This document shows, piece after piece, positions 541 through 63,880 of a DNA stretch of 64,000 nucleotides; the stretch's first letter is position 1; every line of letters starts with the position of its first letter. The position numbers and the translations under genes were made by a program. A model generated the notes under the pieces. It worked only from the letters and a program-made list of their open reading frames with translations. It was not told the origin of the DNA and made no database searches. This stretch comes from Octopus vulgaris. Its lineage: Eukaryota. The stretch is taken from assembly GCA_951406725.2 (NCBI GenBank), contig OX597840.1, positions 31,744,001 through 31,808,000 of the forward strand. The letters run 5' to 3'.

Positions 541-554
541 TCATGTAGGAGGAT

Positions 555-1233
555 GGAGGCGCAATGGCCCAGTGGTTAGGGCAGCGGACTCGCGGTCATA
601 GGATCGCGGTTTCGATTCCCAGACCGGGCGTTGTGAGTGTTTATTGAGCGAAAACACCTAAAGTTCCACGAGGCTTCGGCAGGGGATGGTGGTGATCCCT
701 GCTGTACTCTTTCACCACAACTTTCTCTCACTCTTACTTCCTGTTTCTGTTGTACCTGTATTTCAAAGGGCCGGCCTTGTCACTCTCTGTGTCACGCTGA
801 ATATCCCCGAGAACTGCGTTAAGGGTACACGTGTCTGTGGAGTGCTCAGCCACTTACACGTTAATTTCACGAGCAGGCTGTTCCGTTGATTCGGATCAAC
901 CGGAACCCTCATCGTCGTAACCGACGGAGTGCTTTCATATTCAGCGAAAACACCTAAAGCTCCACGAGGCTCCGGTAGGGGATGGTGGTGATCCCTGTTG
1001 TACTCTTTCACCACAACTTTCTCTCACTCTTACTTCCTGTTTCTGATGTACCTGTATTTCGAAGGGCCGGCCTTGTCTCTCTCTGTGTCACGCTGAATAT
1101 CCCCGAGAACTACGTTAAGGGTACACGTGTCTGTGGAGTGCTCAGCCACTTACACGTTAATTTCACGAGCAGGCTGTTCCGTTGATTCGGATCAACCGGA
1201 ACCCTCGTCGTCGTAACCGACGGAGTGCTTCCA
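555..1233 (+). mobile_element. tRNA-derived SINE family A, full copy plus 3' ~296-bp duplicate
   Basis: A-box TGGCCCAGTGG, B-box-like GGTTTCGATTCC; body repeated 296 bp later; TSD TTCATGTAGGAGG at 540-552 and 1239-1251. Confidence 0.9.
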
Positions 1234-2669: not shown

Positions 2670-4926
2670 TATCATCATCATCATTGTTCGACCGTGGTCG
2701 AGACAATGGAATTTACTATGTTACGCCAGACTTCACGGTCCATCATGGCAATACGGAAGTCCTGTTGCTGGATGCCTGTATCCTTGGAGATTACATCAGG
2801 GTAGGAGAGTGTGCGCCCTCTGGTATCGCGACCGTGGTTGAGACAATGGAAGTTACCATGCTACGCCAGACTTCACGGTCCATCATGGCATTACGGAGGT
2901 CCTGTTGCTGGATGCCTGTATCCCTGGAGATTGCATCAGGGTAGGAGAGTGTGCGCCCTCTGGTATCGCGACCGTGGTTGAGACAATGGAATTTACCATG
3001 CTACGCCAGACTTCACGGTCCATCATGGCAATACGGAGGTCCTGTTGCTGGATGCCTGTACCCCTGGAGATTACATCAGGGTAGGAGAGTGTGCGCCCTC
3101 TGGTATCGCGACCGTGGTTGAGACAATGGAAGTTACCATGCTACGCCAGACTTCACGGTCCATCATGGCATTACGGAGGTCCTGTTGCTGGATGCCTGTA
3201 TCCCTGGAGATTGCATCAGGGTAGGAGAGTGTGCGCCCTCTGGTATCGCGACCGTGGTTGAGACAATGGAATTTACCATGCTACGCCAGACTTCACGGTC
3301 CATCATGGCAATACGGAGGTCCTGTTGCTGGATGCCTGTACCCCTGGAGATTACATCAGGGTAGGAGAGTGTGCGCCCTCTGGTATCGCGACCGTGGTCG
3401 AGACAATGGAATTTACCATGCTACGCCAGACTTCACGTTCCATCATGGCATTACGGAGGTCCTGTTGCTGGATGCCTGTACCCCTGGAGATTACATCGGG
3501 GTAGGAGAGTGTGCGCCCTCTGGTATCGCGACCGTGGTCGAGACAATGGAATTTACCATGCTACGCCAGACTTCACGGTCCATCATGGCATTACGGAGGT
3601 CCTGTTGCTGGATGCCTGTACCCCTGGAGATTACATCAGGGTAGGAGAGTGTGCGCCCTCTGGTATCGCGACCGTGGTCGAGACAATGGAATTTACCATG
3701 CTACGCCAGACTTCACGTTCCATCATGGCATTACGGAGGTCCTGTTGCTGGATGCCTGTACCCCTGGAGATTACATCAGGGTAGGAGAGTGTGCGCCCTC
3801 TGGTATCGCGACCGTGGTCGAGACAATGGAATTTACCATGCTACGCCAGACTTCACGTTCCATCATGGCATTACGGAGGTCCTGTTGCTGGATGCCTGTA
3901 CCCCTGGAGATTACATCGGGGTAGGAGAGTGTGCGCCCTCTGGTATCGCGACCGTGGTCGAGACAATGGAATTTACCATGCTACGCCAGACTTCACGGTC
4001 CATCATGGCATTACGGAGGTCCTGTTGCTGGATGCCTGTACCCCTGGAGATTACATCAGGGTAGGAGAGTGTGCGCCCTCTGGTATCGCGACCGTGGTCG
4101 AGACAATGGAATTTACCATGCTACGCCAGACTTCACGGTCCATCATGGCATTACGGAGGTCCTGTTGCTGGATGCCTGTACCCCTGGAGATTACATCAGG
4201 GTAGGAGAGTGTGCGCCCTCTGGTATCGCGACCGTGGTTGAGACAATGGAAGTTACCATGCTACGCCAGACTTCACGGTCCATCATGGCATTACGGAGGT
4301 CCTGTTGCTGGATGCCTGTATCCCTGGAGATTGCATCAGGGTAGGAGAGTGTGCGCCCTCTGGTATCGCGACCATGGTCGAGACAATGGAATTTACCATG
4401 CTACGCCAGACTTCACGGTCCATCATGGCAATACGGAAGTCCTGTTGCTGGATGCCTGTATCCTTGGAGATTACATCAGGGTAGGAGAGTGTGCGCCCTC
4501 TGGTATCGCGACCGTGGTTGAGACAATGGAAGTTACCATGCTACGCCAGACTTCACGGTCCATCATGGCATTACGGAGGTCCTGTTGCTGAATGCCTGTA
4601 TCCCTGGAGATTGCATCAGGGTAGGAGAGTGTGCGCCCTCTGGTATCGCGACCGTGGTCGAGACAATGGAATTTACCATGCTACGCCAGACTTCACGGTC
4701 CATCATGGCAATACGGAAGTCCTGTTGCTGGATGCCTGTATCCCTGGAGATTGCATCAGGGTAGGAGAGTGTGCGCCCTCTGGTATCGCGACCGTGGTTG
4801 AGACAATGGAATTTACCATGCTACGCCAGACTTCACGGTCCATCATGGCAATACGGAAGTCCTGTTGCTGGATGCCTGTATCCTTGGAGATTACATCAGG
4901 GCAGGAGAGTGTGCGCCCTCTGGTAT
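2670..4926 (-). repeat. 16 x 140-bp tandem array made from the 3' end of an RTE-clade LINE, ending in a (TGA)n tail
   Basis: Units start at 2691, 2831 ... 4791; minus strand encodes ...DTGIQQQD.R.AMMDREVWRSMVNSIVSTTV; short (ATC)n at about 2671-2684. Confidence 0.9.
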
Positions 4927-6313
4927 TGCGAGTAGATGGCTTCCAGAGGAGAAGAGTAGAAATTGCCTCTTTTTCAGCTCTACAACAATGTCCAGCAAAC
5001 TGAACTCTCTTACCTTTCACAAGAGATGACACAGGTGGTAGTTTCCCATATATTTGCATTTTGGTTGGATGACGCTTCCATGAGAGATTTTGAGCTCTCA
5101 TAAGGAGGCGAGTGTAGGTTCCATCCAACTGCCTCTCGAAGAGTGTGCGCCCTCTGGTATTGCGAGTAGATGGCTTCCAGAGGAGAAGAGTAGAAATTGC
5201 CTCGTTTTCAGCTCTACAACAATGTCCAGCAAACTGGACTCTTCTACCTTTCACAAGAGATAACACAGGTGGTAGTTTCCCATATATTTGCATTTTGGTT
5301 GGATGACGCTTCCACGAGAGATTTTGAGCTCTCATAAGGAGGCGAGTGTAGGTTCCATCCAACTGCCTCTCGAAGAGTGTGCGCCCTCTGGTATTGCGAG
5401 TAGATGGCTTCCAGAGGAGAAGAGTAGAAATTGCCTCGTTTTCAGCTCTACAACAATGTCCAGCAAACTGAACTCTCCTACCTTTCACAAGAAATGACAC
5501 AGGTGGTAGTTTCCCATATATTTGCATTTTGGTTGGATGACGCTTCCACGAGAGATTTTGAGCTCTCATAAGGAGGCGAGTGTAGGTTCCATCCAACTGC
5601 CTCTCGAAGAGTGTGCGCCCTCTGGTATTGCGAGTAGATGGCTTCCAGAGGAGAAGAGTAGAAATTGCCTCGTTTTCAGCTCTACAACAATGTCCAGCAA
5701 ACTGAACTCTCCTACCTTTCACAAGAGATGACACAGGTGGTAGTTTCCCATATATTTGCATTTTGGTTGGATGATGCTTCCACGAGATATTTTGAGCTCT
5801 CATAAGGAGGCGAGTGTAGGTTCCATCCAACTGCCTCTTGAAGAGTGTGCGCCCTCTGGTATTGCGAGTAGATGGCTTCCAGAGGAGAAGAGTAGAAATT
5901 GCCTCTTTTTCAGCTCTACAACAATGTCCAGCAAACTGAACTCTCCTACCTTTCACAAGAGATGACACAGGTGGTAGTTTCCCATATATTTGCATTTTGG
6001 TTGGATGACGCTTCCACGAGAGATTTTGAGCTCTCATAAGGAGGCGAGTGTAGGTTCCATCCAACATATATAGTAGTACCTCATTTTACGTGGACCCGCT
6101 GGTATTGGTATTGCGAGTAGATGGCTTCCAGAGGAGAAGAGTAGAAATTGCCTCTTTTTCAGCTCTACAACAATGTCCAGCAAACTGAACTCTCCTACCT
6201 TTCACAAGAGATGACACAGGTGGTAGTTTCCCATATATTTGCATTTTGGTTGGATGACGTTTCCACGAGAGATTTTGAGCTCTCATAAGAAGGCGAGTGT
6301 AAGTTCCATCCAA
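4918..6313 (-). repeat. 5 x 234-bp tandem array plus a sixth unit from the RTE ORF2 C-terminus
   Basis: ORF 4703..6067(-) repeats the 78-aa LDGTYTRLLMRAQNLSWKRHPT...RRVQFAGHC...LLLWKP unit, typical of the RTE post-RT region. Confidence 0.88.
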
Positions 6314-6501
6314 CATATATAGTAGTACCTCATTTTACGTCGACCCGCTTTACGAGACATTAGGTTTAAGAGTCATATTTTTCAAGCACAGAATTTAAAT
6401 TTTGAACAAAATCCAAATGTTTCTGCTACCATTGCAAATGCTTCTGCGTGTAACCGAGAAATTTGTAGAGAGCGAAGAAAAGCATCAAAGGAAGATATCT
6501 A

Positions 6502-10598: not shown

Positions 10599-10983
10599 TG
10601 GAGGCGCAATGGCCCAGTGGTTAGGGGAGCGGACTCGCGGTCGTAGGATTGCGGTTTCGATTCCCAGACCGGGCATTGTGAGTGTTTATTGAGTGAAAAC
10701 TCCTAAAGCTCCACGAGGTTCTGGCAGGGGATGGTGGTGATCCCTGCTGTACTCTTTCACCACAACTTTCTCTCACTCTATCTTCCTGTTTCTGTTGTAC
10801 CTGTATTTCAAGGGGCTGGCCTTGTCACTCTCTGTGTCACGCTGAATATCCCCGAGAACTACGTTAAGGGTGCACGTGACTGTGGAGTGCTCAGCCACTT
10901 ACACGTTAATTTCACGAGCAGGCTGTTCCGTTGATTCGGATCAACCGGAAACCTCATCGTCGTTACCGACGGAGCGCTTCCAA
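10599..10983 (+). mobile_element. SINE A monomer
   Basis: Full head to tail; TSD ATGTGCCATT on both sides. Confidence 0.9.
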
Positions 10984-16825: not shown

Positions 16826-17306
16826 TCTTTATATATAAAAGTCAAGTTGTGTGTCTGTCTCCTAACTACTCCCACATTTTGCGGTGCAGTTTAACCAAAA
16901 CCGGGTATCTTATAGTCGTCATTCATATCGAGCCCTTCTGGGTATTAGCGCGCGTCTACGATGGGTCTACAATTTAAAAAAAAATGACCATCATTTTTTT
17001 CCATTTTAATGCATTTTTTCGTTATCATATAAGGGAAGTAACTCTCTAAAAATGTCTACGATGAGTCAACGATTTTTAATAAAATTTACCATCATTTTCT
17101 TCCATTTTAATGCATTTTTTCGCTATTATATAAGGGAAGTAACTCTCTAAAAATGTCTACGATGAGTCAACGATTTTTAATAAAATTTACCATCATTTTT
17201 TTCCATTTTTAATGCATTTTTTGCTATTTTTTGGCTATAACTCTCTAAAAATGCTTATATAGTTATTTCCCTTACAAACCCGAGCAACGCCGGGCGATAC
17301 TGCTAG
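16826..17306 (+). mobile_element. Non-autonomous Helitron
   Basis: 5' TC(TTTATATATAAA), 3' hairpin CCCGAGCAACGCCGGG then CTAG, inserted at A|T; internal ~100-bp tandem repeats. Confidence 0.8.
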
Positions 17307-17654
17307 TATATATATATATAGGACTCCACTGGAAATTTGCGATATGTGCAATCTAGTTTTGTTCTTATCGGTCTTGTCTTCGTCTTTTCTGTCCGCCTTC
17401 GTCTATCATGTCCGTTCATTTATATCCATTTCTACGTCAGTGACACCGCCAAATTGAACAATATTATCGGATGGTGTCGAAACTGTCATGATATTTGATC
17501 GGCAACTGATGGCGAATTGAATATGTCTACGTCTTACGTGCTCGTGTGTGCGTTTGTGTGCGTGTGTGCGTTTGTGTGCGTGTGTGCGTGTGTGCGTGTG
17601 TGCGTTTGTGTGTGTGTGTGCGTGTGTGCGTGTGCCTGTGTGTGTGTGTACTCA

Positions 17655-18558: not shown

Positions 18559-18905
18559 GGTGATGCAAAATACTTTACCATTTCCAAAACTTCAAGACGC
18601 CCTCTAATTTTATTTAATTTAGTGCAAAACCTCAACATGCAAACTCTCAGCACAGTTGAAGACATTTTAGGGGTTGCTACCATCCACTGAACATTTTATA
18701 TATTGTTATATTTCAGTTTGTATTTATCGTATATTTTTCTGTCCCCTTGCCATGATGCCTTGGCCCCGACATACAACTGTGTAAGAGATTCAAATTAAAG
18801 TGGGTAGAAATTGACAGGAACAATTACCTTACACTTTTCTTGGAAAGGATGATGATGAATGGAATCAGGATGAAAGTTATGCAAATACAAGAAATATAGC
18901 ATATA

Positions 18906-19563
18906 TATTTCTTTATTGCCCACAAGGGGCTAAACACAGAGAGGACAAACAAGGACAGATAAAGGGATTAAGTCGATCACATCGACCCCAGTGCGTAACT
19001 GGTACTTATTTAATCGACTCCGAAAGGATAAAAGGCAAAGTCGACCTCGGTGGTATTTGAACTCAGAACGTAAAGACAGACGGAATACCTATTTCTTTAC
19101 TACCCACAAGGGGCTAAACACAGAGAGGACAAACAAGGACGGACAAAGGGATTAAGTCGATTACATCGACCCCAGTGCGTAACTGGTACTTATTTAATCG
19201 ACTCCGAAAGGATAAAAGGCAAAGTCGACCTCGGCGGAATTCGAACTCAGAACGTAACGGCAGATGAAATACGGCTACGCATTTCGCCCGGCGCGCTAAC
19301 GTTTCTGCCAGCTCGCCGCCTTTAAATACCTATTTCTTTACTACCCACAAGGCGCTAAACATAGAGAGGACAAACAAGGACAGGCAAAGGGATTAAGTCG
19401 ATTAGATCGACTCCAGTGCGTAACTGGTATTTAATTTATCGACCCCGAAAGGATAAAAGGCAAAGTCGACCTCGGCGGAATTCGAACTCATAACGTAACG
19501 GCAGACAAAATACAGCAACGCATTTCGCCCGGCGTGCTAACGTTTCTGCCAGCTCACCGCCTT
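18906..19563 (-). mobile_element. SINE family C (Meta-domain-like), dimer plus monomer
   Basis: Head GGCGGCGAGCTGGCAGAAACGTTAGC, B-box-like GAGTTCAAATTC, GTCGACTTTGCCTTTCATCCTTTCGGGGTCGAT..AAGTACCAG; imperfect TSD AAGAAA(TA/CT)TAGCATA. Confidence 0.85.
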
Positions 19564-19759
19564 GCAAGAAACTTAGCATACTGACTCAAAGTGGTAAAGG
19601 ACATTGCAGGAAAGAGGTGTAACGACTGAAGGGGGTATACGACAAACTGACAACCAATGATGAAGAGCAGAAACGAAGCAGTCTTTAAACTGCTAAAAAT
19701 GACAGGTCGTCGCCCTCAAACAAAACAAGAAAACATTACGCTTGCTTCACGATTTCATA

Positions 19760-20013: not shown

Positions 20014-20178
20014 GCGTTCTGAGTTCAAATTCCGCCGAGGTCGACTTTGCTTTTCATTCTTTCGGGGTCGATTAAATAAGTACCAGTTACGCACTGGGGT
20101 CGATCTACTCGACTTAATTTGTTTGTCCTTGTTTGTCCCCTCTGTGTTTAGCCCCTTGTGGGTAGTAAAGAAACAGAT
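20014..20178 (+). mobile_element. SINE C 3' unit
   Basis: Matches the C body. Confidence 0.8.
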
Positions 20179-20242
20179 ATGCTGACTGGGAAACTTCCAC
20201 ACAAAAGAACTTAATGCGCTATACGCTGTACCTCACTACGTG

Positions 20243-20627
20243 TGGAGGCGCAATGGCCCAGTGGTTAGGGCAGCGGACTCGCGGTCATACGATCGCGGTT
20301 TCGATTCCTCGACCGGGCGTTGTGAGTGTTTATTGAGCGAAAACACCTAAAGCTCCACGAGGCTCCGGCAGGGGATGGTGGTGATCCCTGCTGTACTCTT
20401 TCACCACAACTTTCTCTCACTCTTACTTCCTGTTTCTGTTGTACCTGTATTTCAAAGGGCCGGCCTTGTCACTCTCTGTGTCACGCTGAATCTCCCCGAG
20501 AGCTACGTTAAGGGTACACGTGTCTGTGGAGTGCTCAGCCACTTACACGTTAATTTCAGGAGCAGGCTGTTCCGTTGATTCGGATCAACTGGAACTCTCA
20601 TCGTCGTAACCGACGGAGTGCTTCCAC
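20243..20627 (+). mobile_element. SINE A monomer
   Basis: TSD ACCTCACTACGT. Confidence 0.9.
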
Positions 20628-20854
20628 CACCTCACTACGTACTACAGCCTAGAACAGTGGTCACCAAACTTTTTTTCATAGTGGGCCAGATACAGCGAAA
20701 AGAATTCCAAGAGCGGACCGGATAAATATTTTGTTCAATTCAGTACAATATAGAATATACTGAATTTACACAAAATATAAAGACAGTCATCCTATTTATT
20801 TATCAATACATAAAATACACAAAATAATAAAAACAATAATCATATTTTAATAAT

Positions 20855-21089
20855 ACCTATTTCTTTACTGCCCACAAGGGGCTAAACACAGAGAGGACAA
20901 ACAAGGACAGACAAAGGGATTAAGTCGATTATATCGACCCCAGTGCCTAACTGGTACTTAATTCATCGACCCCAAAAGGATGAAAGGCAAAGTCAACCTC
21001 TGCGGAATTTGAACTCAGAACGTAATGGCAGACGAAATACAGCTACGCATTTCGCCAGGCGTGCTAATGTTTCTGCCAGCTCGCCTTTA
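20855..21089 (-). mobile_element. SINE C monomer
   Basis: Full C head and body. Confidence 0.85.
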
Positions 21090-21256
21090 ATAATACCAAC
21101 ATATTACCAAGTTAGAAGTTTTAGAAAAAGTGCACTTCTATGAAAATATCTTCCCCAGTTATTGTTCCATGTATACTGCAAACGGATGCCATCTCTTCTA
21201 TAATCTCAAAGTTGCAAATAAAACCACGAATGAACAGAAGTTGTGATGTTCTAGAG

Positions 21257-21882
21257 CAGTGCTTTTCAAACTTTTTGCTGGAGCGGAACCCCAAGGAAAC
21301 ATTCCACTGGCTCGAGGAACCCCTGTGCAATAATTTAATAGTCTTATACACACATAGGCGCAGGAGTGGCTTTGTGGTAAGTAGCTTGCTTACCAACCAC
21401 ACGGTTGCGGGTTCAGTCCCACTGCGTGGCATCTTGGGCAAGTGTCTTCTGCTATAGCCCCGGGCCGACCAATGCCTTGTGAGTGGATTTAGTAGACGGA
21501 AACTGAAAGAAGCCTGTCGTATATATATGTATGTGTGTGTGTGTTTGTGTGTCTGTGTTTGTCCCCCTAGCATTGCTTGACAATCGATACTGGTGTGTTT
21601 ATGCCCCCGTCTCTTAGCGGTTCGGCAAAAGAGACCGATAGAATAAATACTGGGCTTACAAAGAATAAGTCCCGGGGTCGAGTTGCTCGATTAAAGGCGG
21701 TGCTCCAGCATGGCCGCAGTCAAATGACTGAAACAAGTAAAAGAGTAAAAGAGAAAGAGTATATCTGCACAGGAGACTTTAAAATTACTGCCGATTTTAG
21801 CAGTTTTGTAACTTCTTGCGGAACCCCTGCACTGTACTGGCGGAACCCTAAGGTTCCGCGGAACCCTGGTTGAAAACCACTG
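21257..21882. mobile_element. hAT-type MITE nested in the transposase gene
   Basis: TIRs CAGTGCTTTTCAA / TTGAAAACCACTG; 8-bp TSD TTCTAGAG / TTCCAGAG; repeated GCGGAACCC subterminal motifs. Confidence 0.8.
21356..21760 (+). mobile_element. SINE B inside the MITE
   Basis: Full B sequence. Confidence 0.9.
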
Positions 21883-22609
21883 TTCCAGAGAGACCAGCAG
21901 ACTCATCCATCGCAAGAGAATACCACAAAAATTTCTTAGCTTTCTTATGTATCTGTAACTGTATATTCTCTCCAAGTTCTTCTAATCTCCGCACAACTGA
22001 ACTTGCTGAAAGGCTGATACAGCCAAACAGGTTAGCTTTTTCAGGACACAAGTCATTTGCAGCTTCCAGCATGCACTCTTTTAGAAGGTTTCCGTCAGTA
22101 AATGGTTTTCCTCGTTCTGCCAACTTATTCACTATTTTGTAACTTACACGAGTGATAGATTCATTTTCAACAAACGTTTTCGTTAAGAAATTCCTTTGAG
22201 ATTCCAAACTACGTTTCATAGATTCAAATTTCTCGGACCGCAACTTTCCAGAATATTTAGAATGTGTTGAGAGATGTTTTGCTTCGTAGTGACGACAAAT
22301 ATTGTATTCTTTCGTAACAGCAACACCTTCGTTGCATATCAGGCAACAAGCTTTCTGGTCGTTTGTTTCCACAAAGAAGTACTTTATTGAAAATGTGACA
22401 TTCATCATCAATCTTTCTCTTTTTAGTAGCCATAACGATGGGTGAAGAAGAAACAAAAGCAGTCACAGGCCTCGGCGTCAGATATTCTCGTTTTAATTGT
22501 AATCACCCATAACTGACTCGCCCGAGGCGCACGTGATGTACTGTAGCAATTATTATGGCGCGTGAAATACATACTACGTAACGTGACTGACTCAGTATAC
22601 ATACGATAT

Positions 22610-22880
22610 TCTTTACTCTTTTACTCTTTTACTTGTTTCAGTCATTTGACTGCAGCCATGCTGGAGCACCGCCTTTAATCGAGCAACTCGACCCCGGGAC
22701 TTATTCTTTTGTAAGCCCAGTACTTATTCTATCGGTCTCTTTTGCCGAACCGCTAAGTAACGGGAAAGGATGAAAGGCAAAGTTGACCTCGGGCGGAATT
22801 TGAACTCAGAACGTAATGGCAGACGAAATACGGCTACGCATTTCGCCCGGCGTGCTAACGTTTCTGCCAGCTCGCCGCCC
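22610..22880 (-). mobile_element. Chimeric SINE: C head plus B 3' half
   Basis: Minus strand C head to ...CATCCTTTC joined directly to CCGTTACTTAGCGGTTCGGC...B tail. Confidence 0.8.
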
Positions 22881-23297
22881 TACGATATGCGTAATCTAAG
22901 AAGAAGCAATATAAAACATGTTTATTTTTTTTCAGCATACGACGGCGGGCCGGACAAATTGATGTCACGGACCAGATCCGGCCTGCGGGCTGTAGTTTGG
23001 TGACCCATGGCCTAGAATATCATCGTTTCTGTTTGTTTGTTTTTCAAACTAGGTTAACTAGGTACATATCAAACCGGTTCCGGCAAAAATATCAGCAAAA
23101 CAATATTTTTCAGCACAAACTGAAATACATTTATTTTAAAAATTTGGTAGCAGCCTCTAATTTTCTCTTTTTCAGTTCCAAATTTCGCATACAATGCTTT
23201 CCTTGGAATATGAATAAAATAAGAGGGTGTCTCCCTGAAAATAGACAAAAACAAAATTGACCCCTCTTTTTGCATCAACCTAATACATATATATACA

Positions 23298-23666
23298 CTA
23301 GCAGTATCGCCCGGCGTTGCTCGGGTTTGTAAGGGAAATAACTATAAGGCATTTTTAGAGAGTTATAGCCAAAATATAGCAAAAAAATGGGGGGAAAATG
23401 ATGGTAAATTTTTTTTGATAGTTAAAAAGGTCGAGTTGCGTCCCCTAGACAGTCTGTGGTTTGTGTTTCTGATTCTTGACCCCATGTCGAATTTATCGAT
23501 TTTTTCAGAACTGAAGGAACTTTTCAAAATTTTCGCTGCGTTAGTTTTGAATTATGACATTGGGCTATGTGTGTGTTAAGTTTCATCAGAATCGGTTGAA
23601 AGCCGTGGTCAGGGTGAGGGTACAACCTAACAGACACACAGAAACACACACAGACAAACTGCCGTT

Positions 23667-23820: not shown

Positions 23821-24243
23821 AAAGGCAGCGAGCTGGCCGAAACGTTAGCACGCCGGGCGAAATGCTTAGCGGTATTTCCTCCGCCGCTGCGTTCTGAGTT
23901 CAAATTCCACCGAGGTCGACTTTGCCTTTCATCCTTTCGGGGTCGATTAAATAAGTACCAGTTACGCACTGCAGGTCGATATAATCGACTTAATCCCTTT
24001 CTCTGTCCTTGTTTGTCCTCTCTGTGTTTAGCCCCCTGTGGGCAGTAAAGAAATAGATATTTCGTCTGCCGTTACGTTCTGAGTTCAAATTCCGCCGAGG
24101 TCGACTTTGCCTTTCATCCTTTCGGGGTCGATTAAATAAGTACCAGTTACGCACTGGGGTCGATGTAATCGACTTAATCCCTTTGCCTGTTCTTGTTTGT
24201 CCCCTCTGTATTTAGCCCCTTGTGGGCAATAAAGAAATAAGAA
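23821..24243 (+). mobile_element. SINE C dimer
   Basis: Head plus two ~184-bp bodies. Confidence 0.88.
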
Positions 24244-24617: not shown

Positions 24618-25048
24618 TACTCTTTTATTTGTTTCAGTCATTTGACTGCGGCCATGCTGGAGCGCCGCCTTTAGTCGAGCAAATCGACCCCGGGACTTAT
24701 TTTTTTGTAAGCCTTGTACTTATTCTATCGGTCTCTTCTTGCCGAACCGCTAAGTTATGGGGACGTAAACACACCAGCATCGGTTGTCAAGCGATGTTGG
24801 GAAACAAATACAGACACACACACACACTGCGGCCATGCTGGAGCGCCGCCTTTAGTCGAGAAAATCGACCCCGGGACTTATTTTTTGTAAGCCTTGTACT
24901 TATTCTATCGGTCTCTTCTTGCCGAACCGCTAAGTTACGGGGACGTAAACATGCCAGCATCGGTTGTCAAGCGATGTTGGGGAACAAATACAGACACACA
25001 CACACACACACATATACATAGGACGGGCTTCTTTCAGTTTCTACCTAC
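24618..25048 (-). mobile_element. SINE B 3' part with ~180-bp internal tandem duplication
   Basis: CTGCGGCCATGCTGGAGCGCCG...CACAC occurs twice. Confidence 0.85.
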
Positions 25049-25182: not shown

Positions 25183-25873
25183 TGGAGGCGCAATGGCCCA
25201 GTGGTTAGGGCAGCGGACTCGCGGTCATAGGATCACGGTTTCGATTGCCAGACCGGGCGTTGTGAGTGTTTATTGAGCGAAAACACCTAAAGCTCCACTA
25301 GGCTCCGGCAGGGGATGGTGGTGATCCCTGCTGTACTCTTTCACCAGAACCTTCTCTCACGTTTACTTCCTGTTTCTTTTGTACCTGTATTTCAAGGGGC
25401 CGGCCTTGTCACTCTCTGTGTCACGCTGAATATCCCCGAGAACTACATTAAGGGTACACGTGTCTGTGGAGTGCTCAGCCACTTACGCGTTAATTTCACG
25501 AGCAGGCTGTTCCGTTGATTCGGATCAACCGGAACCCTCATCGTCGTAACCGACGGAGTGCTTCCATTCCATATTGAGCGAAAACACCTAAAGCTCCACT
25601 AGGCTCCGGCAGGGGATGGTGGTGATCCCTGCTGTACTCTTTCACCACAACTTTCTCTCACTCTTATTTCCTGTTTCTTTTGTACCTGTATTTCAAGGGG
25701 CCGGCCTTGTCACTCTCTGTGACACGCTGAATCTCCCCCCGAGAACTACGTTAAGGGTACACGTGTCTGTGGAGTGCTCAGCCACTTACACGTTAATTTC
25801 ACGAGCAGGCTGTTCCGTTGATTCGGATCAACCAGAACCCTCATCGTCGTAACCGACGGAGTGCTTCCATTCC
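25183..25873 (+). mobile_element. SINE A dimer
   Basis: Same junction as 555-1233; TSD ATATGTAAG. Confidence 0.9.
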
Positions 25874-25970
25874 ATATGTAAGTATATATGTATGTAGGTA
25901 GGTAGGTGGATAGATAGTGTATGTATGCATATATGCATGTATTTATGTATGCATATATCTATATATATGC

Positions 25971-28217: not shown

Positions 28218-28479
28218 TCTCTCTTTTACTTGTTTCAGTCATGTGACTGTGGCCATGCTGGAGCACCGCCTTTAGTCGAGCAAATCGACCCTGGGACATA
28301 TTCTTTGTAAGCCTAGTACTTATTCTCTTGAGCAAATCGACGCCAGGACTTATTCTTTGTAAGCCTAGTATTTATTCTCTCGGTCTCTTTTGCCGAACCG
28401 CTAAGTGACGGGGACGTAAACACACCAGCATCGGTTGTCAAGCAATGCTAGGGGGACAAACACAGACACACAATCATAT

Positions 28480-40139: not shown

Positions 40140-41705
40140 TGAAAGCTTGGGGAGGGGAAGTGGCTGGGGCAGTAACGAAACATCTTCATGTAATACAATA
40201 CAGACAAGTATGTGGGCAGTACTTGTCAGCACAATCTTTTGGATTTCTCTGAAACATGGTTCTCCTGGGATATTATTTGGATGTTTCTGACATCTCATTT
40301 TTTTCCATACCTAGGGCATCTACAAAAACAGGGATAGTTCTCGATTTAAGGTACCACATCTTTTGTATTTCGAAGTCCAGGTCCTCATAGTTATTTAATT
40401 TGTCAAATTCCTTTACAGGTATATATTTATCAGTGAGAACACTTACATCTATTAGTGTACAATTATTTTTTCCCCATCCTTAATGACTATGTCTGGTCGA
40501 TTATCCTGGATCGTTCTGTCGGTATAGACTGGAAAATACCAGAGAATAGTGACATTCTAACCTTCAACGACTGGCTCAGGATGATGCTCAATCCAATCAG
40601 CAGGAGTACTGATTTTGTAGTGTTTATATATTATCCAATTTAGATACTGTTCTACCCCACACCTTGGGGATTTTTGTATTCGTGTGGTGTCAGCACAGGA
40701 CATTCCAAAACGAGATGGTCTTTTGTTTCGTCAAATGTGTCGCAGAATTCTGCATTTAGTGTGAGAACCTATTTCTTTATTACCCACAAGGGGCTAAACA
40801 CAGAGGGGACAAACAAGGAACAGACATAGGTATTAAGTCGATTACATCGACCCCAGTGCGTAACTGGTACTTAATTTATCGACCCCGAAAGGATGAAAGG
40901 CAAAGTCGACCTCGGCGGAATTTGAACTCACAACGTAACGCAGACGAAATACCTATTTCTTTATTACCCACAAGGGGCTAAACACAGAGGAGACAAACAA
41001 GGACAGACATAGGTATTAAGTCGATTACATCGACCCCAGTGCGTAACTGGTACTTAATTTATCGACCCGAAAGGATGAAAGGCAAAGTCGACCTCGGCGG
41101 AATTTGAACTCACAACGTAACGCAGACGAAATACCTATTTCTTTATTACCCACAAGGGGCTAAACACAGAACAAACAAGGACAGACATAGGTATTAAGTC
41201 GATTACATCGACCCCAGTGCGTAACTGGTACTTAATTTATCGACCCCGAAAGGATGAAAGGCAAAGTCGACCTCGGCGGAATTTGAACTCACAACGTAAC
41301 GGCAGACGAAATACCTATTTCTTTATTACCCACAAGGGGCTAAACATAGAGGGGACAAACAAGGACAGACATAGGTATTAAGTCGATTACATCGACCCCA
41401 GTGCGTAACTGGTACTTAATTTATCGACCCCGAAAGAATGAAAGGCAAAGTCGACCTCGGCGGAATTTGAACTCACAACGTAACGCAGACGAAATACCGC
41501 TAAGCATTTCGCCCGGCGTGCTAACGTTTCTGCCAGCTCGCCGCCTTTGTGTCAGAACCGTTTTGAAGAAACTTAACCTGGTAGGTTTTGGTAAGTAAGC
41601 TTTGATCTTGTGCCGCCAATATGAAACCTTCAGTCTCTGCTTTCGATCATGAAATTCTCAGCCACTGATGGGTTGTTGCTTAGTCTACATCAGCATTTCG
41701 ACTTC
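40140..41705 (-). pseudogene. Second R4/Dong-like fragment (zinc knuckle and RLE region) split by a SINE C tetramer
   Basis: HQWL...AETEGFILAAQDQSL, then C..FDETKDHLVLECP and the KMWYLKS..IPVFV region. Confidence 0.75.
40768..41547 (-). mobile_element. SINE C tetramer (one head, four ~184-bp bodies)
   Basis: Identical junction repeated three times; TSD-like GTGT(G/C)AGAACC. Confidence 0.9.
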
Positions 41706-44303: not shown

Positions 44304-44920
44304 TTTCTTTTATTGGTCGCAAGGGCCCAAGACATAAAGGACAATATCTAAGGATGAGCTACAGCACCAAAAGAAAATTACAAAATTGGACCACGGTGGA
44401 ATTTGAACTCAAAGCGTAGACACTGATGAAATGCCGCTAAGCATTTTGCCCGGAGTACTCACGACTCTGCTAGCTCGCTACTCTACACCGTTGTCCAATA
44501 ATTGGTTATTATTGTAAGCGGCGAGCTGGTAGAATCGTTAACATACAGGACGAAATTATAGCAGAATTTCGTCTGTCTTTATTTTCTGAGTTCAAATTCC
44601 GCCGAAGTCTACTTTGCCTTTCATCCTTCCGGGATCAATAAAATAATGACCAATCAAGGACTAGGAGCGATGTAATTGACTTATTCCCTTCCTGAATTTT
44701 CTGGCCTTCAACCAAAATTTTAAACCAATAGTAGTTACTATTTTAAGGCAGCGAAATGGCAGAATCATTATGATGGACCTAAAGAATAGCAACATTTTGT
44801 CCATTTTTAAGTTTTGGGTACGAGTTCAGCCGAAATTAACTTTACCTTTCATCCTATCGGAGGTCAATAAAACAAACATCTCCCCCGATATTGCTAGCCC
44901 TGTGCCAAAATTTGATACCA
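44303..44920. mobile_element. Cluster of old SINE C-like copies
   Basis: Degenerate GCGGCGAGCTGG / GAGTTCAAATTCCGCCGA / CCTTTCATCCT motifs on both strands. Confidence 0.65.
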
Positions 44921-46118: not shown

Positions 46119-46890
46119 TCTTCGGTGTAGCGTCAACGAGCGTCAGACGGTGACTGACTTGTCAAATTTTTTTCCCTTTAAATACCTGCTGCTAGGCTCC
46201 AGCAGGCAGCCCCAGGAAGTTGTCACGTGACACTGTCTCAGCTTTAACTGACTAGTGAAGGCGCGTAGTCTTAGTCCACGCATTCGCTAAACGACCGTCA
46301 CCTGTCAATCAGCGAAGCCAATTCAGTGTCAGCTTGTCTCACCAAGTGATGTTATTTCCCGCCGGCATGTTCTGACTTTCAAGCCATTTTTGGTCTTCCC
46401 GATTCAGGCAAAATGAGTTGCAGCAAACCGCCTGTCTTCGTGATCTGAATTCAAATTCTACTGAGGTCATCTTTGTCTTCCGTGGTCGATAAAATAAGTA
46501 CAATTTGAGCACTGGGGATGATGTAATCCACTTAATCCAATTAAACCCAGCCGCATCGTCAGAAACTTCTGGCGTTGTGCCAAAATTTGAAACAAATAAT
46601 ATTGAACACTAAAAGAATAAAACGTTAAGATAATTTTGGCAAGATTTCAAATCAGGATGCAAGGAGATGAAGCAGATTACACAACCGTTCCATCTGATAT
46701 TCCAAGGATTTCAGTAGGGTTCCGCCTTGATTGGTATTCTTTTTTCACAGCCCCGAAACAACGGGAGTGAGATATTTGAAATCAGAAGGCACAAAACTAG
46801 AAAACCCATTAGCAAAATCTAGCAGGGTTACACGTTTGAGATATTGCTTTAAGCTATCGAACACAATGGACACGTGTTAGATTACAATGT

Positions 46891-47271
46891 AGAAGCACTC
46901 CGTCGGTTACGACGACGAGGGTTCCGGTTGATGCGAATCAACGGAACAGCCTGCTCGTGAAATTAACGTGTAAGTGGCTGAGCACTCCACAGACACATGT
47001 ACCCTTAACGTAGTTCTCGGGGATATTCAGCGTGACACAGAGAGTGACAAGGCCGGCCCTTTGAAATACAGGTACAACAGAAACAGGAAGAAAGAGTGAG
47101 AGAAAGTTGTGGTGACAAAGTACAGCAGGAATCGCCACCATCCCTGCCGGAGCCTCGTGGAGCTTTTAGGTGTTTTCGCTCAATAAACACTCACAACGCC
47201 CGGTCTGGGAATCGAAACCGCGATCCTACGACCGCGAGTCCGCTGCCCTAACCACTGGGCCATTGCGCCTC
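46891..47271 (-). mobile_element. SINE A monomer
   Basis: TSD GTTAGATTACAATG. Confidence 0.9.
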
Positions 47272-50223
47272 AACGTTAGATTACAATGCCTCAAAGCAGA
47301 AAGGAGGCAGGTGCACCGTTGCATTGATTCCATTTCACTATTACGAAGATTTAATCTCACATTTCCAATCACACCAATCCACAAATCCATACACACCATT
47401 CTATAATTCCAGTCACAATTCTATGGATCAAATTGCACCATTCCACCATCAAATCACTCCATAGATGCAATCATTTCCTATATGCAATATATTCCATTCA
47501 CCCAATCACATCTTTCAATCCTGAAAATCCTAAAAATCCATAGATCCAACCCCGAAAATTTATAGATCCCAGCACACCCTCCTATAGATCTAATCACATC
47601 ATTTCATCATCAAATCAAACCATTCCATAGATCCAGCCTCACCATTCCACATAACAAATCAAATCATTGCATCATACAATCAAACCATTCAATATATCTC
47701 TTCCATGGATCCATTCACATCACTCCATAGATCCAGACAGACCATTCCATACATCCAGTCAAATCATTCTATAGATCCATTCACATCATTCCATAGATCC
47801 ATTCACATCATTCTATAGATCCATTCAAATCATTCTATAGATCCATTCACATCATTCCATAGATTCATTCACACCATTTCATAGACCCATTTACATCATT
47901 CCATAGATCCATTCACATCATTCTATAGATCCATTCGAATCATTCTATAGATTCATTGACATCATTCCATAGATTCATTTGCACCATTTCATAGATTCAT
48001 TCACATCATTCCATAGATCCATTCAAATCATTCTATAGATCCATTCAAATCATTCCATAGATTCATTCACATCATTCCATAGATCCATTCAAATCATTCT
48101 ATAGATCCATTCAAATCATTCTATAGATCCATTCACATCATTCCATAGATTCATTCACACCATTCCATAGATTCATTCACACCATTTCATAGATCCATTC
48201 AAATCATTCTATAGATCCATTCAAATCATTCCATAGATTCATTCACACCATTCCATAGATTCATTCACACCATTCCATAGATTCATTCACACCATTTCAT
48301 AGATTCATTCACATCATTCCATAGATCCATTCAAATCATTCTATAGATCCATTCAAATCATTCTATAGATCCATTCACATCATTCCATAGATTCATTCAC
48401 ACCATTCCATAGATTCATTCACACCATTTCATAGATCCATTCAAATCATTCTATAGATCCATTCAAATCATTTCATAGATTCATTCACACCATTCCATAG
48501 ATTCATTCACACCATTCCATAGATTCATTCACACCATTTCATAGATCCATTCAAATCATTCTATAGATCCATTCAAATAATTCTATAGATCCATTCGAAT
48601 CATTCTATAGATCCATTCACATCATTCCATAGATTCATTGACATCATTCCATAGATTCATTTGCACCATTTCATAGATTCATTCACATCATTCTATAGAT
48701 CCATTCGAATCATTTTATAGATCCATTCACATCATTCCATAGATTCATTCACATCATTCCATAGATTCATTCACATCATTCCATAGATTCTTTCACACCA
48801 TTTCATAGATTCATTCACATCATTCCATAGATTCATTCACATCATTCCATAGATTCTTTCACACCATTTCATAGATCCATTCACATCATTCTATAGATCC
48901 ATTCACATCATTCCATAGATCCATTCACATCATTCCATAGATCCATTCACATCATTCTATAGATCCATTCACAGCATTCCATAGATCCATTCACAGCATT
49001 CCATAGATCCATTTGCACCATTTCATAGATCCACTCACACCATTCCATAGGTCCATTTGCAACATTCTATAGATCTATTTGCAACATTCTAAAGATCCAT
49101 TCACACCACTCCAATGATCAAATTACATAAATCACACCTATCCATAGACCCAATCAAACCTTAACATAAATCCAATCACAACTTTCCATATGACCATTCA
49201 TACTATTCCATAAATCCATTCATACCATTCCATAGGCCCATTCACACCATTCAATGCAGCCATTCACACAATTCCATAGATCCAGTTATGTCATTCCATA
49301 CATAAGATTACACCATGCTATAGATACAATCAAATCATTCTACTGATCCAGTCACACAATTCTGTAGATCCAGTCACACCATTCCATAGGTCCAATCACC
49401 TCACTCCATAGATCCAACCATGCCATGACATAAATCCAATCACACTATTCCATAGATCCATTCACACCATTCTGTACATCCATTCACGTCATTCCAAAGA
49501 TCCAAGCACAACATTCCATAGATCCAATCACACCATCCCAATGATCAAATTACACCATTCCATAGATCCATCCACAACATTCTGCAGAAGCATTCACACT
49601 ATTCCATAGATTCATTCACACCTTTCTCTGATCCATTCTGTAGATGGGTCACACTATTCTGTAGGTACATTCACACCATTCCATAGATCCAGTCACACCA
49701 TTCCATAGAGCCATTCAAACGATTCTATAGATCCAGTTATGTCATTCCATGCATCAAATCACACCATTCTATAGATCCAATCACTCTATTTTATACAACC
49801 AGTCACATCATTCCATAAATTCAGTCATACCATTCTATAGATCCAATCAAACCATTTCACAGATCAAATCAAACCATTCTAGAGATTCAATCACTCTATT
49901 TTATACAACCAGTCACATCATTCCATAAATTCAGTCATACCATTCTATAGATCCAATCAAACCATTTCACAGATCAAATCACACCATTCTAGAGATTCAA
50001 TCAAATCATTCCTTATTTTGATAAGAACAAAAGGAAGATGACCATTGCAACATTCCATAGTTTTAATCCCAAAATTATATTCCCTTCCGTTGTGCCATTC
50101 CAGACATGCAGCCTCTCCACTCATTCAATCCAAAACTTAAAATCTCACCATTCCATAGATCTACTCACACCATCCAATGGATCCATTCCCATAATTCCAA
50201 TCAGCCAATTTTATCACCTTTAA

Positions 50224-50770: not shown

Positions 50771-51244
50771 AGGAACATAATACACAGTAATACCATTCTG
50801 CGGATAAATTCACCATTCTAAACTCCTAATTTCACCTTTCCATACATCCACTCACACATTTCATAGATCGAATCTCACCATTCTATAGATCCACTCATTC
50901 CATTCCAAGGATCTTATCACATCATTCCATAGATCCAATCCCAGTATTCCAATGAGATGGTTACACCATTTCTCAGAACCAATCATGCCATTCCATTCCA
51001 ACCAATCACAGCATTCCATAGATCCACTCCAACCTGTCCATTGATTTCAATCGCATCCTTCTATTTTATCCAATCACACCATTCTATGGATATTTGGCCA
51101 TTCCATGGAACCACTCACGTCATTGCGTTGCAAGAAATCTCCGGGATATTTTTTTTGTTTTTTTTTGTTATTGTTGAAGTAATGAGAGTTGCATGTCTTC
51201 TGCGGAATGGTCTTTTAAATTGGAATTTAAGTCTTCACACATAG

Positions 51245-54629: not shown

Positions 54630-55219
54630 AGAAACGTTAGCACGTCGGGCGAAATGCGTAGCCGTATTTCGCCTGCTGTTACGTTCTGAGTTCAAATTCC
54701 GCCGAGGTCGATTTTACCTTTCATCCTTTCGGGGTCGATAAATTAAGTACCAGTTAGGCACTGGGGTCGATGTAATCGACTTAATACCTATGTCTGTCCT
54801 TGTTTGTCCTCTCTGTGTTTAGCCCCCTGTGGGTAGTAAAGGAATAGGTATTTCGTCTGCCGCTACGTTCTGAGTTCAAATTCCGCCGAGGTCAACTTTA
54901 CCTTTCATCCTTTCGGGGTCGATAAATTAAGTACCAGTTATGCACTGGGGTCGATGTAATCGACTTAATACCTATGTCTGTCCTTGTTTGTCCGCTCTAT
55001 GTTTAGCCCTTTGTGGGTAATAAAGAAATAGGTATTTCGTCTGCCGTTACGTTCTGAGTTCAAATTCCTCCGAGGTCGACTTTGCCTTTCATCCTTTCGG
55101 GGTCGATAAATTAAATACCAGTTACGCATTGGGGTCGATGTAATCGACTTAATACCTATGTCTGTCCTTGTTTGTCCCCTCTATGTTTAGCCTCTGGTGG
55201 GCAATAAAGAAATAGGTAT
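54630..55219 (+). mobile_element. SINE C trimer
   Basis: Truncated head plus three bodies, same junction. Confidence 0.9.
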
Positions 55220-61617: not shown

Positions 61618-62293
61618 AGGCGCAATGGCCCAGTGGTTAGGGCAGCGAACTCGCGGTCGTAGGATCGCGGTTTCGATTCCCAGACCGGGCGTTGTGAGTG
61701 TTTATTGAGCGAAAACACCTAAAGCTCCACGAGGCTCCGGCAGGGGATGGTGGTGATCCCTGCTGTACTCTTTCACCACAACTTTCTCTCGCTCTTACTT
61801 CCTGTTTCTGTTGTACCTGTATTTCAAAGGGCCGGCCTTGTCACTCTCTGTGTCACGCTGAATATCCCCGAGAACTACGTTAAGGGTACACGTGTCTGTG
61901 GAGTGCTCAACCACTTACACGTTAATTTCACGAGCAGGCTGTTCCGTTGATCGGATCAACCGGAACCCTCATCGTCGTAACCAACGGAGTGTTTCCATAT
62001 TGAGCGAAAACACCTAAAGCTCCACGAAGCTCCGGCAGGGGATGGTGGTGATCCCTGCTGTACTCTTTCACCACAACTTTCTCTCGCTCTTACTTCCTGT
62101 TTCTGTTGTACCTGTATTTCAAGGGGCCGGCCTTGTCACTCTCTGTGTCACGCTGAATATCCCCGAGAACTACGTTAAGGGTACACGTGTCTGTGGAGTG
62201 CTCAGCCACTTACACGTTAATTTCACGAGCAGGCTGTTCCGTTGATTCGGATCAACTGGAACCCTCGTCGTCGTAACCAACGGAGTGCTTCCC
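61618..62293 (+). mobile_element. SINE A dimer
   Basis: Same junction; TSD CAGTCGTCAATA. Confidence 0.9.
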
Positions 62294-63291: not shown

Positions 63292-63880
63292 TTTATATAT
63301 ATATATATGTATGTATGTATGCATGTATGTATGTATGTATGTATGTATGTATGCATGTATGTATGTATGTATGTATGTATGTATGTATGTATGTATGTAT
63401 GAAATCTTTTTTGTAAGATAGTTGTGCTTATAATTCAGTGTATCTTAACTAGTTGTGTCACTCTACTGGGTGTGGGGAGCGACATTGAGCTCACAGAGAC
63501 GTAGCACGTGTCAAAGGGAGTGCTATGGATGGAGTGGGGTTAGGAGGTCGCAGTTGTTTTTTAGAAGTACGTTATTGTTGCAGAATTGGCCAAAAGTCAC
63601 GTACCAAATCATTTGTCATTTTTACAGTAGAATTGTTACCATGCCGGACAAAATGCTAGGCGACTTTACTTCGGACTTCACGTTCTGAGTTCAGATCCAC
63701 CGTTGTCGACTTCTTCTTTTGACCTTTTCGGGCGTCAATGAAATAAGTACCAGCTGATCGACCCCAGTGTTCAACTGGTACTTATGTGTGAAAGGAAAAG
63801 TCTATTCCGGCGGGATAGCGAGATGAAAGGTCACTAAACATTTTGTCTGGCTTGCTAATAATTCTGCAACGTCGCCACCT

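Follow-up and report, generated by a model that had tools for sequence, protein, structure and literature searches.

The closest described system to the arrays considered here is that of the squamate SINE-derived satellites sSat1-3, as far as the accessible text of PMC10702118 describes them. In both cases the tandem units are shorter than the SINE, a longer terminal unit reaches the SINE end and the number of units varies. A few sSat unit types recur at many loci (PMC10702118). However, sSat arrays run to hundreds of units, prefer subtelomeric positions and are ascribed to recombination at the DNA level (PMC10702118). The octopus arrays, which belong to two families called C and A below, are short and dispersed, and they are the majority form in the window. 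Target duplications (TSDs) surround the whole multimer in 5 of these 7 arrays. The main text of PMC10702118 makes no mention of target duplications, template switching or rolling circles. It counts as an sSat an array of partial-SINE tandem units with a longer terminal unit, which is what the octopus arrays are, and at least 4 middle monomers. The largest octopus array has 4 units, 2 of them middle ones.

Other SINE multimers differ in other ways, going by the accessible text of the papers cited. The head-to-tail multimers of Dip and B2 consist of full-length units (PMC8466645), whereas here there is a single head. Alu-type dimers (PMC3531059) and Bov-A2 (PMC4324840) have a fixed number of two, but the number varies here. 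The monomers of Bov-A2 carry position-diagnostic sites (PMC4324840). The duplications of quasi-dimeric SINEs are short and internal (PMC3531059), while in our case the repeat runs to the 3' end. The common ground with complex SINEs is that these exist and amplify as dimers or multimers, and that short leaky terminators such as TATTT occur (PMC8466645). By analogy, the octopus arrays behave like a complex SINE that is amplified as a multimer, but with a variable number of units.

It is also worth considering two systems that are not SINEs, again from what is accessible of their descriptions. Metazoan non-LTR retrozymes are likewise non-autonomous tandem units (theirs are 170-400 nt, mobilised by LINE or Penelope enzymes), but they are defined by a type I hammerhead and circular RNA (PMC11722881). 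Here no hammerhead was found, and the head is of Pol III type. An identity as non-LTR retrozymes was rejected because the search of the units gave no type I hammerhead. In DRT2 a reverse transcriptase turns a sub-region of one non-coding RNA into tandem repeats, as would be the case here if each array were copied from one template. DRT2 differs in being bacterial, with a dedicated enzyme, identical units and cDNA that is not integrated (PMC12039810). We use it as a working analogy for that one rival explanation only.

The SINEs of octopus include OK, OR1 and OR2. OR1 has been named as a CORE-SINE (PMC4824008), and tRNA-Deu families are listed in Octopus vulgaris (PMC13282606), as far as the accessible text of these papers goes. 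Our literature search found no description of this architecture in cephalopods; supplements, repeat libraries and subscription papers may cover it. The main text of the 2026 octopus repeat annotation (PMC13282606) does not mention it, and the accessible parts of PMC9795677, PMC4758252 and PMC4824008 contain nothing on it. The window motifs are absent from the searchable supplements of PMC4824008 and PMC4758252 other than file 1 of each.

Architecture of families C and A

The window is the whole 64-kb stretch of Octopus vulgaris DNA that was analysed. Searching it with one head-plus-body unit of family C gives 6 young loci and some old fragments (Table 1). The form of the family is a 50-nt head followed by 1, 2, 3 or 4 bodies of ~184 nt. 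Multimers make up 4/5 of the complete head-bearing loci. The initial annotation described a monomer, a dimer at 23822, a trimer and a tetramer, and all of them are present in the sequence with period 184. It took the locus at 18906 for a plain dimer as well, which is not correct. That locus is head-body-head-body-body within one 16-nt duplication.

Bodies are joined to each other at a single point in 7/7 cases in the window, where AAAGAAATA is followed directly by GGTATTTCGTC. With its variants the joint is AAAG(A/G)AATA followed by G(G/A)TATT(T/C)CGTC. The idea of one fixed junction therefore stands for body-to-body joints, but the 18906 locus has a second type of joint, body to head, in which GGTATTT is followed by AAAGGCGG with no homology. 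The internal sequence that matches the 3' end of the element is GGTATTT (7 nt) in 2/5 heads and GTATTT (6 nt) in the other 3. The 3' ends themselves are ragged (GGT, GGTAT, GGTATT, GATAT, GGTATTT). Older relatives lie at 44383-44689, 46446-46536 and 63629-63784. They are 73-81% alike and share head and central block with family C, and the one at 44518 has a different tail after ~nt 175.

TSDs were scored against a null of 110 mismatched flank pairs, which reach a maximum score of 9. Among the family C loci 3/5 score 9-14, at or above this maximum. TSDs are found around 2/4 family C arrays and overlap the 3' letters of the element; a target duplication was sought around the trimer and the 23822 dimer and none was found. 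The TSD-like repeat that had been reported around the tetramer is there, 11 nt long with one mismatch. Its score of 9.0 equals the null maximum, which makes it modest evidence by itself.

Family A is a 383-nt element that is unrelated to C (best match 10 nt, E 0.13), and 3/6 of its complete loci are a head plus 2 bodies (554, 25183, 61618). In 3/3 dimers the tail CCA is followed at once by the restart of the second body at nt 89 (TATTGAGCG). At 25183 TAT is common to joint and flank, and the end of the array runs on into this TAT, with which the next unit would begin. TSDs bracket 3/3 dimers, and 6/6 family A loci score 9-14 against the null maximum of 9. The evidence on family A dimers is from the window. 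Family A has the same architecture as C with a joint homology of at most 1 nt at 2/3 joints, so microhomology between GGTATT and GGTATTT, offered at first as an alternative, is not a general explanation. The 5' and 3' ends of family A have a predicted pairing over 9 bases.

The A-box pattern is found at nt 13 in 3/5 family C loci scanned, and the B-box pattern is found in the bodies. Family A has the A box in 6/6 loci; the strict B-box pattern is unmatched, with GTTTCGATTCC found by eye. The anatomy of family C is that of a tRNA-type SINE, because it has A- and B-box patterns, interspersed copies and variable TSDs over the 3' letters, with no reverse transcriptase in the scanned frames (Pfam, 20 of 135 open frames). 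Its central block after the A and B boxes may be Deu/Nin-like. ARAGORN finds 0 tRNA genes in the window, and Rfam has 0 matches at gathering score. Over the tetramer Rfam gives no ribozyme at E<=10, only 2 chance-level matches (E 5 and 9.7). The hammerhead core CTGANGA is on neither strand. The arrays are real, and both families are likely to be SINEs.

Another family, B, with 15 matches to its head and 18 to its tail, has no head-plus-n-body array with a 3'-end joint in the window. It has only internal tandem duplications, of 180 nt (24645-25007) and 52 nt (28278-28380), whose ends are unlike the head-plus-body joints. Part of family B is also found in a chimera with family C, which suggests a template switch between different SINEs. 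Other repeats lie nearby. Two adjacent tandem arrays, 140 nt x16 (97%) at 2689-4931 and 234 nt x6 (96%) at 4906-6314, share a stretch at their border, and a gap of 100 N (2535-2634) adjoins them. Pfam matches on a frame of the 234-nt repeat were taken as repeat artefacts. At 47701-50012 and 50833-51091 there is a 22-nt minisatellite with higher-order periods of 44 and 110 nt. A 101-nt x3 tandem at 16954-17320, whose end matches 23284-23415, is part of another dispersed element. The minus strand of 21851-22462 has a 204-codon open frame with a sub-threshold Spin-doc zinc-finger match (Pfam, E 4e-6), possibly the remnant of a DNA transposon.

Table 1. Window coordinates of family C, family A and chimeric elements and of their parts
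Feature	Position	Strand	Details
C tetramer	40768-41547	-	head + 4 bodies
Tetramer head	41498-41547	-	50 nt; A-box-like motif at nt 13
Tetramer body 1	41315-41497	-	B-box-like motif
Tetramer body 2	41135-41314	-	B-box-like motif
Tetramer body 3	40953-41134	-	B-box-like motif
Tetramer body 4	40768-40952	-	B-box-like motif; end AAAGAAATAGG running into target duplication
Tetramer TSD, 5' copy	41549-41559	-	10/11 match to 40759-40769
Tetramer TSD, 3' copy	40759-40769	-	overlaps last GG of element
C trimer	54630-55219	+	head cut at nt 17; bodies from 54664, 54848, 55032
C dimer	23822-24239	+	bodies from 23872 and 24057; end AAAGAAATA AGAAATA
C head-body-head-body-body	18906-19563	-	body-to-head joint near 19323-19330
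TSD of 18906 locus	19565-19580 / 18888-18903		16 nt, 14/16; score 11; brackets whole
C monomer	20852-21088	-	12-nt target duplication (12/12) overlapping GGTATT end
C 5'-truncated body	20015-20180	+	start ~nt 69; end GATAT
A head + 2 bodies	554-1233	+	second body from 938; target duplication
A head + 2 bodies	25183-25874	+	second body from 25572; both bodies end TTCCATTCCA
A head + 2 bodies	61618-62292	+	second body from 61998; target duplication
A monomer	20243-20626	+	383 nt; reference
A monomer	10599-10982	+	
A monomer	46891-47273	-	
C/B chimera	22594-22881	-	family C nt 3-116 + 3' part of family B; ATATCGTA (8 nt) at both sides

Unit divergence and joints in public runs

If the units of an array were born identical, their differences should be private. 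The tetramer fits an identical birth, with 0-3 substitutions per pair of units and a private G in 4/4 units. Its 4 units also hold 6 indel events and the 9 remaining full units together 1, and because of this excess some of the tetramer differences may partly be consensus errors. The units of the other three C arrays differ by 6.6-11.5% within an array. Over all loci the divergence is 4.6% within and 8.0% between; with the tetramer removed it is 7.9% and 9.2% (P 0.02). Subfamily letters at columns 77, 80, 124 and 128 are common to the units within each array.

Letters of other loci are reused in 23/49 non-CpG differences within the four family C arrays, where an identical birth of the units would lead one to expect 8.8 (P 0.0005). 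This P rises to 0.004, 0.03 and 0.14 as rate hot spots are increased. Leaving out the first body of the 18906 locus gives 15/39 (P 0.004-0.32), and using all columns with a tenfold CpG rate gives P 0.08-0.18; CpG columns hold only 16/117 variant letters. The 5'-truncated body at 20015 counts as an outside locus in the divergence and reuse tests and was dropped from the position permutation described below. Column 154 G/A splits the units inside 3/4 arrays, and it is a common variant in sequencing runs (20889 C>T, 21-59% of depth). Alleles that are shared across loci segregate within arrays, and this includes both substitutions of tetramer body 1. The older arrays do not consist of simple clones of one unit. 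Family A reuses letters in 5/26 cases (P 0.03-0.36), which is no significant excess and fits a clonal birth. Array-wide private letters are found in 2/4 family C arrays and 2/3 family A dimers.

Some letters appear to follow the position of the unit. 175G is in 5/6 head-bearing bodies and 0/7 headless ones (13 bodies; naive P 0.005, best of 20 columns). When column 175 is permuted within arrays 4/48 arrangements do as well, so P is 0.083. 166C is confined to two first bodies, that of the trimer and that of the 23822 dimer, and these two differ in subfamily. Each of the 3 older arrays has 173C+175A in its last body. The 2 ends without GG are both of this last-body type, and the monomer and the truncated body have 175G and end in G(G/A)TAT. 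The initial annotation had named unit-specific variants shared across loci, as from a multimeric master gene, as the sign that would speak against its own model. Columns 175, 166 and 173 partly behave like such variants, but the sample is small and the permutation gives 4/48.

The joints can also be looked for outside the window. We compared 4 of 24 listed public runs, as assembled contigs only, with 20200-21150, which has one monomer per family. Runs X17-X24 (word share <=0.10) were left out, and the word share is at most 0.57 in any run. It must be noted that the runs differ from the window in the spacer, that the 4 have three organism labels among them and that they may be from another species than the window. 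Between 33,699 and 438,889 contigs per run matched the two-family stretch. The family C joint (21035 to 20852, 184 nt, 5 shared letters) is in 4/4 runs, in 15, 21, 7 and 8 contigs. Loose ends past the family C 3' end have the body start as their consensus in X3, X2 and X15 (520, 1145 and 70 contigs; agreement 0.44-0.55). Two classes of family C end are seen, at 20858 and 20852. Any RNA origin of X15 is only a guess, and as contigs it is without transcript, circle or RNA-end information.

Other joints are present too. A whole-unit body-to-head joint (21085 to 20853) is in 11, 14, 0 and 1 contigs of the 4 runs, and a joint 173 nt back is in 33, 47, 2 and 7. Out of 15 joints listed from a total of 1120, 9, these two among them, lead back to the 3' end of family C from different internal places. 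Extra letters are present in some of the listed joints, which may be variant bodies joined at the usual point. These 15 of 1120 do not include the joint of family A, and the runs have no excess of body over head for A. Contig depth in X3 is ~30 million for the family C body against 8.8 and 1.7 million for the head, but this is no copy number, the reference head is divergent and we do not use it as evidence. Contigs of X3 and X2 also have the family A 3' end (20626) joined to the family C 3' end (20853-20858) in opposite orientation, with 5-13 contigs per row. Tail-to-tail pairs of A and C may be a recurrent arrangement.

Origin of the multimers

An RNA and reverse-transcription route for the multimers is likely, because they are recurrent, they share a joint and at least 2 of them were inserted or are bounded as one event. 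We tentatively prefer the reading, which we would place just short of probable, that the joint is inherited in multimeric source genes that are read through at a leaky TATTT terminator, and is not made afresh at each insertion. The joint would have arisen once or rarely per family, by a template jump of the reverse transcriptase or by duplication. The multimer would then stay an active source, with the single head promoter driving Pol III through the bodies. The TATTT in each family C joint would be a leaky Pol III stop, so that one source gives RNAs with 1, 2, 3 or 4 bodies, each with a tail that a LINE reverse transcriptase could use for priming. Slippage or unequal exchange between homologous bodies would change the number of units. 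Either process together with 3' truncation would spread first-unit variants, and could in this way produce the near-identical tetramer and the private letters of family A. The GGTATT at the end of the element may have been carried over from where the next unit begins, in which case it would follow from the joint and not have caused it.

Inheritance is the simplest account because the exact joint is in most copies, with or without microhomology. It is supported by the family A joint, which needs no long microhomology, and by units that are not plain clones and have position-linked tail letters. In human cells 42% of the transcripts of a B2 construct stopped at TATTT, and staggered stops were seen at the related TCTTT, according to the accessible text of PMC8466645. 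The ragged ends of family C are similar to the staggered stops that have been reported for short terminators, and a run of 4 T is absent from the tetramer and the 23822 dimer. Several things count against this reading. The position signal is weak (P 0.083), and the reuse test fades with hot spots. Array-wide private letters are what copying of the same template predicts, and two of them create T4 runs (18906 locus, 25183). The TATTT of the head itself and TGTTT or TCTTT in the bodies would also stop transcription. The family A joint has no TATTT, and the terminator data are mammalian.

The joints could instead be made during target-primed reverse transcription by jumps between RNAs, with a preferred internal stop and then the 3' end of another SINE RNA, guided by GUAUUU in family C. 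One can point to the homology-free body-to-head joint inside one TSD at 18906, which is also in contigs, and to the C/B chimera with a duplication around it. The returns to the family C 3' end from several places (9 of the 15 joints listed of 1120) go the same way, mixed alleles within arrays are explained, and template jumping by L1 ORF2p makes concatemers in vitro, as the accessible text of PMC10830420 has it. However, a jump at one particular base is needed in over half of the window insertions, and the homology is 0-1 nt in family A. Position-linked tail letters and array-wide private letters need extra assumptions, and some of the other contig joints may be variant bodies joined at the usual point. 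We find such jumps rather unlikely. It is unlikely, too, that the reverse transcriptase of the partner LINE makes a new concatemer at every insertion through a programmed jump that leaves from one fixed point just behind the head and lands on the 3' end. This would be a reiteration like that of DRT2 or telomerase in an animal genome, in at least two unrelated SINE families and with the fixed point set by the RNA. It was noticed after the fact that each restart point is on a weak Pol III terminator motif, TATTT (nt 52-56) in C and TGTTT (nt 85-89) in A, at a predicted hairpin. A 9-base pairing between AUAGGUAUU and an internal stretch is also possible in the subfamily to which trimer and tetramer belong. 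These motifs and pairing are a lead only because such motifs occur several times per element. The model first put forward has one template copied repeatedly at each insertion, by jump-back on a linear RNA or around a circularised body, and then a switch to the head. It accounts for the near-identical tetramer with its private G in 4/4 units, for array-wide private letters in 4/7 arrays and for a doubled tail in both 25183 bodies. In the family C head a 12-bp hairpin is predicted, with the restart immediately 3' of its loop, and DRT2 reverse transcriptase does copy in this way on linear RNA (accessible text of PMC12039810). Yet 7/7 arrays (all 4 of C and the 3 dimers of A) have a head, no array in the window is headless or circularly permuted, and shared alleles segregate within arrays. 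The GT at the start fits a splice donor and AG is at the other end, but judging by sequence their order is opposite to that of back-splicing. Rolling-circle copying of a circular body is not supported, given the heads, the search for a ribozyme and the older units, which are not simple clones. Jump-back may still apply to the tetramer and to family A, which fit an identical birth. Copying of one template per insertion is quite improbable.

Expansion could also take place in the DNA, where slippage or unequal sister exchange would multiply the body of an inserted monomer or dimer in place. The tetramer units are only 0-3 substitutions apart and yet its 11-nt TSD has a mismatch, which has a chance of 8-17% at that distance. 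Other tandems in the window have unrelated ends (140-nt x16, 234-nt x6, 180-nt in family B), and unit number varies between orthologous SINE-derived arrays in rattlesnakes (accessible text of PMC10702118). However, this process multiplies a joint that is already there. It does not bring about one and the same joint at all of the 4 + 3 independent loci, and in family A even less than in C. It also predicts private differences only. We regard it as distinctly unlikely. New copies might insert into old ones at the internal GTATTT, which would pair with their 3' end, while homology to the head already in place would resolve the 5' joint. TSDs that overlap the 3' letters of the element mean that tail-like targets are used, and contigs cannot separate nested insertions from multimers. 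Such self-insertion is nevertheless very improbable, given that no array has a leftover partial head, family A has no matching site, subfamily letters are shared within arrays and units are closer within loci even with the tetramer removed (7.9% and 9.2%, P 0.02). An assembly artefact, at least for the tetramer, deserves almost no weight. The tetramer is known from the assembly alone, its units are nearly identical with an excess of indels, and the assembly is scaffolded, with a 100-N gap. But the other three arrays differ by 6.6-11.5% within, and independent runs contain the joint. An artefact could change how many units the tetramer has, but it would leave the phenomenon as it is.

Implications for SINE propagation

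SINE multimers are known, but in the window two unrelated families occur most often as a head plus n bodies. For B2 dimers the accessible text of PMC8466645 states that the choice between inheritance and formation during reverse transcription is unresolved. The octopus has very many loci, so the same question becomes testable by computation alone. If the source genes are multimers of variable number with leaky terminators, this would be a mode of SINE propagation that consensus libraries built on monomers have missed. If true, it would also give a direct route by retrotransposition from SINE to satellite seeds, a step that the squamate study left to DNA recombination.
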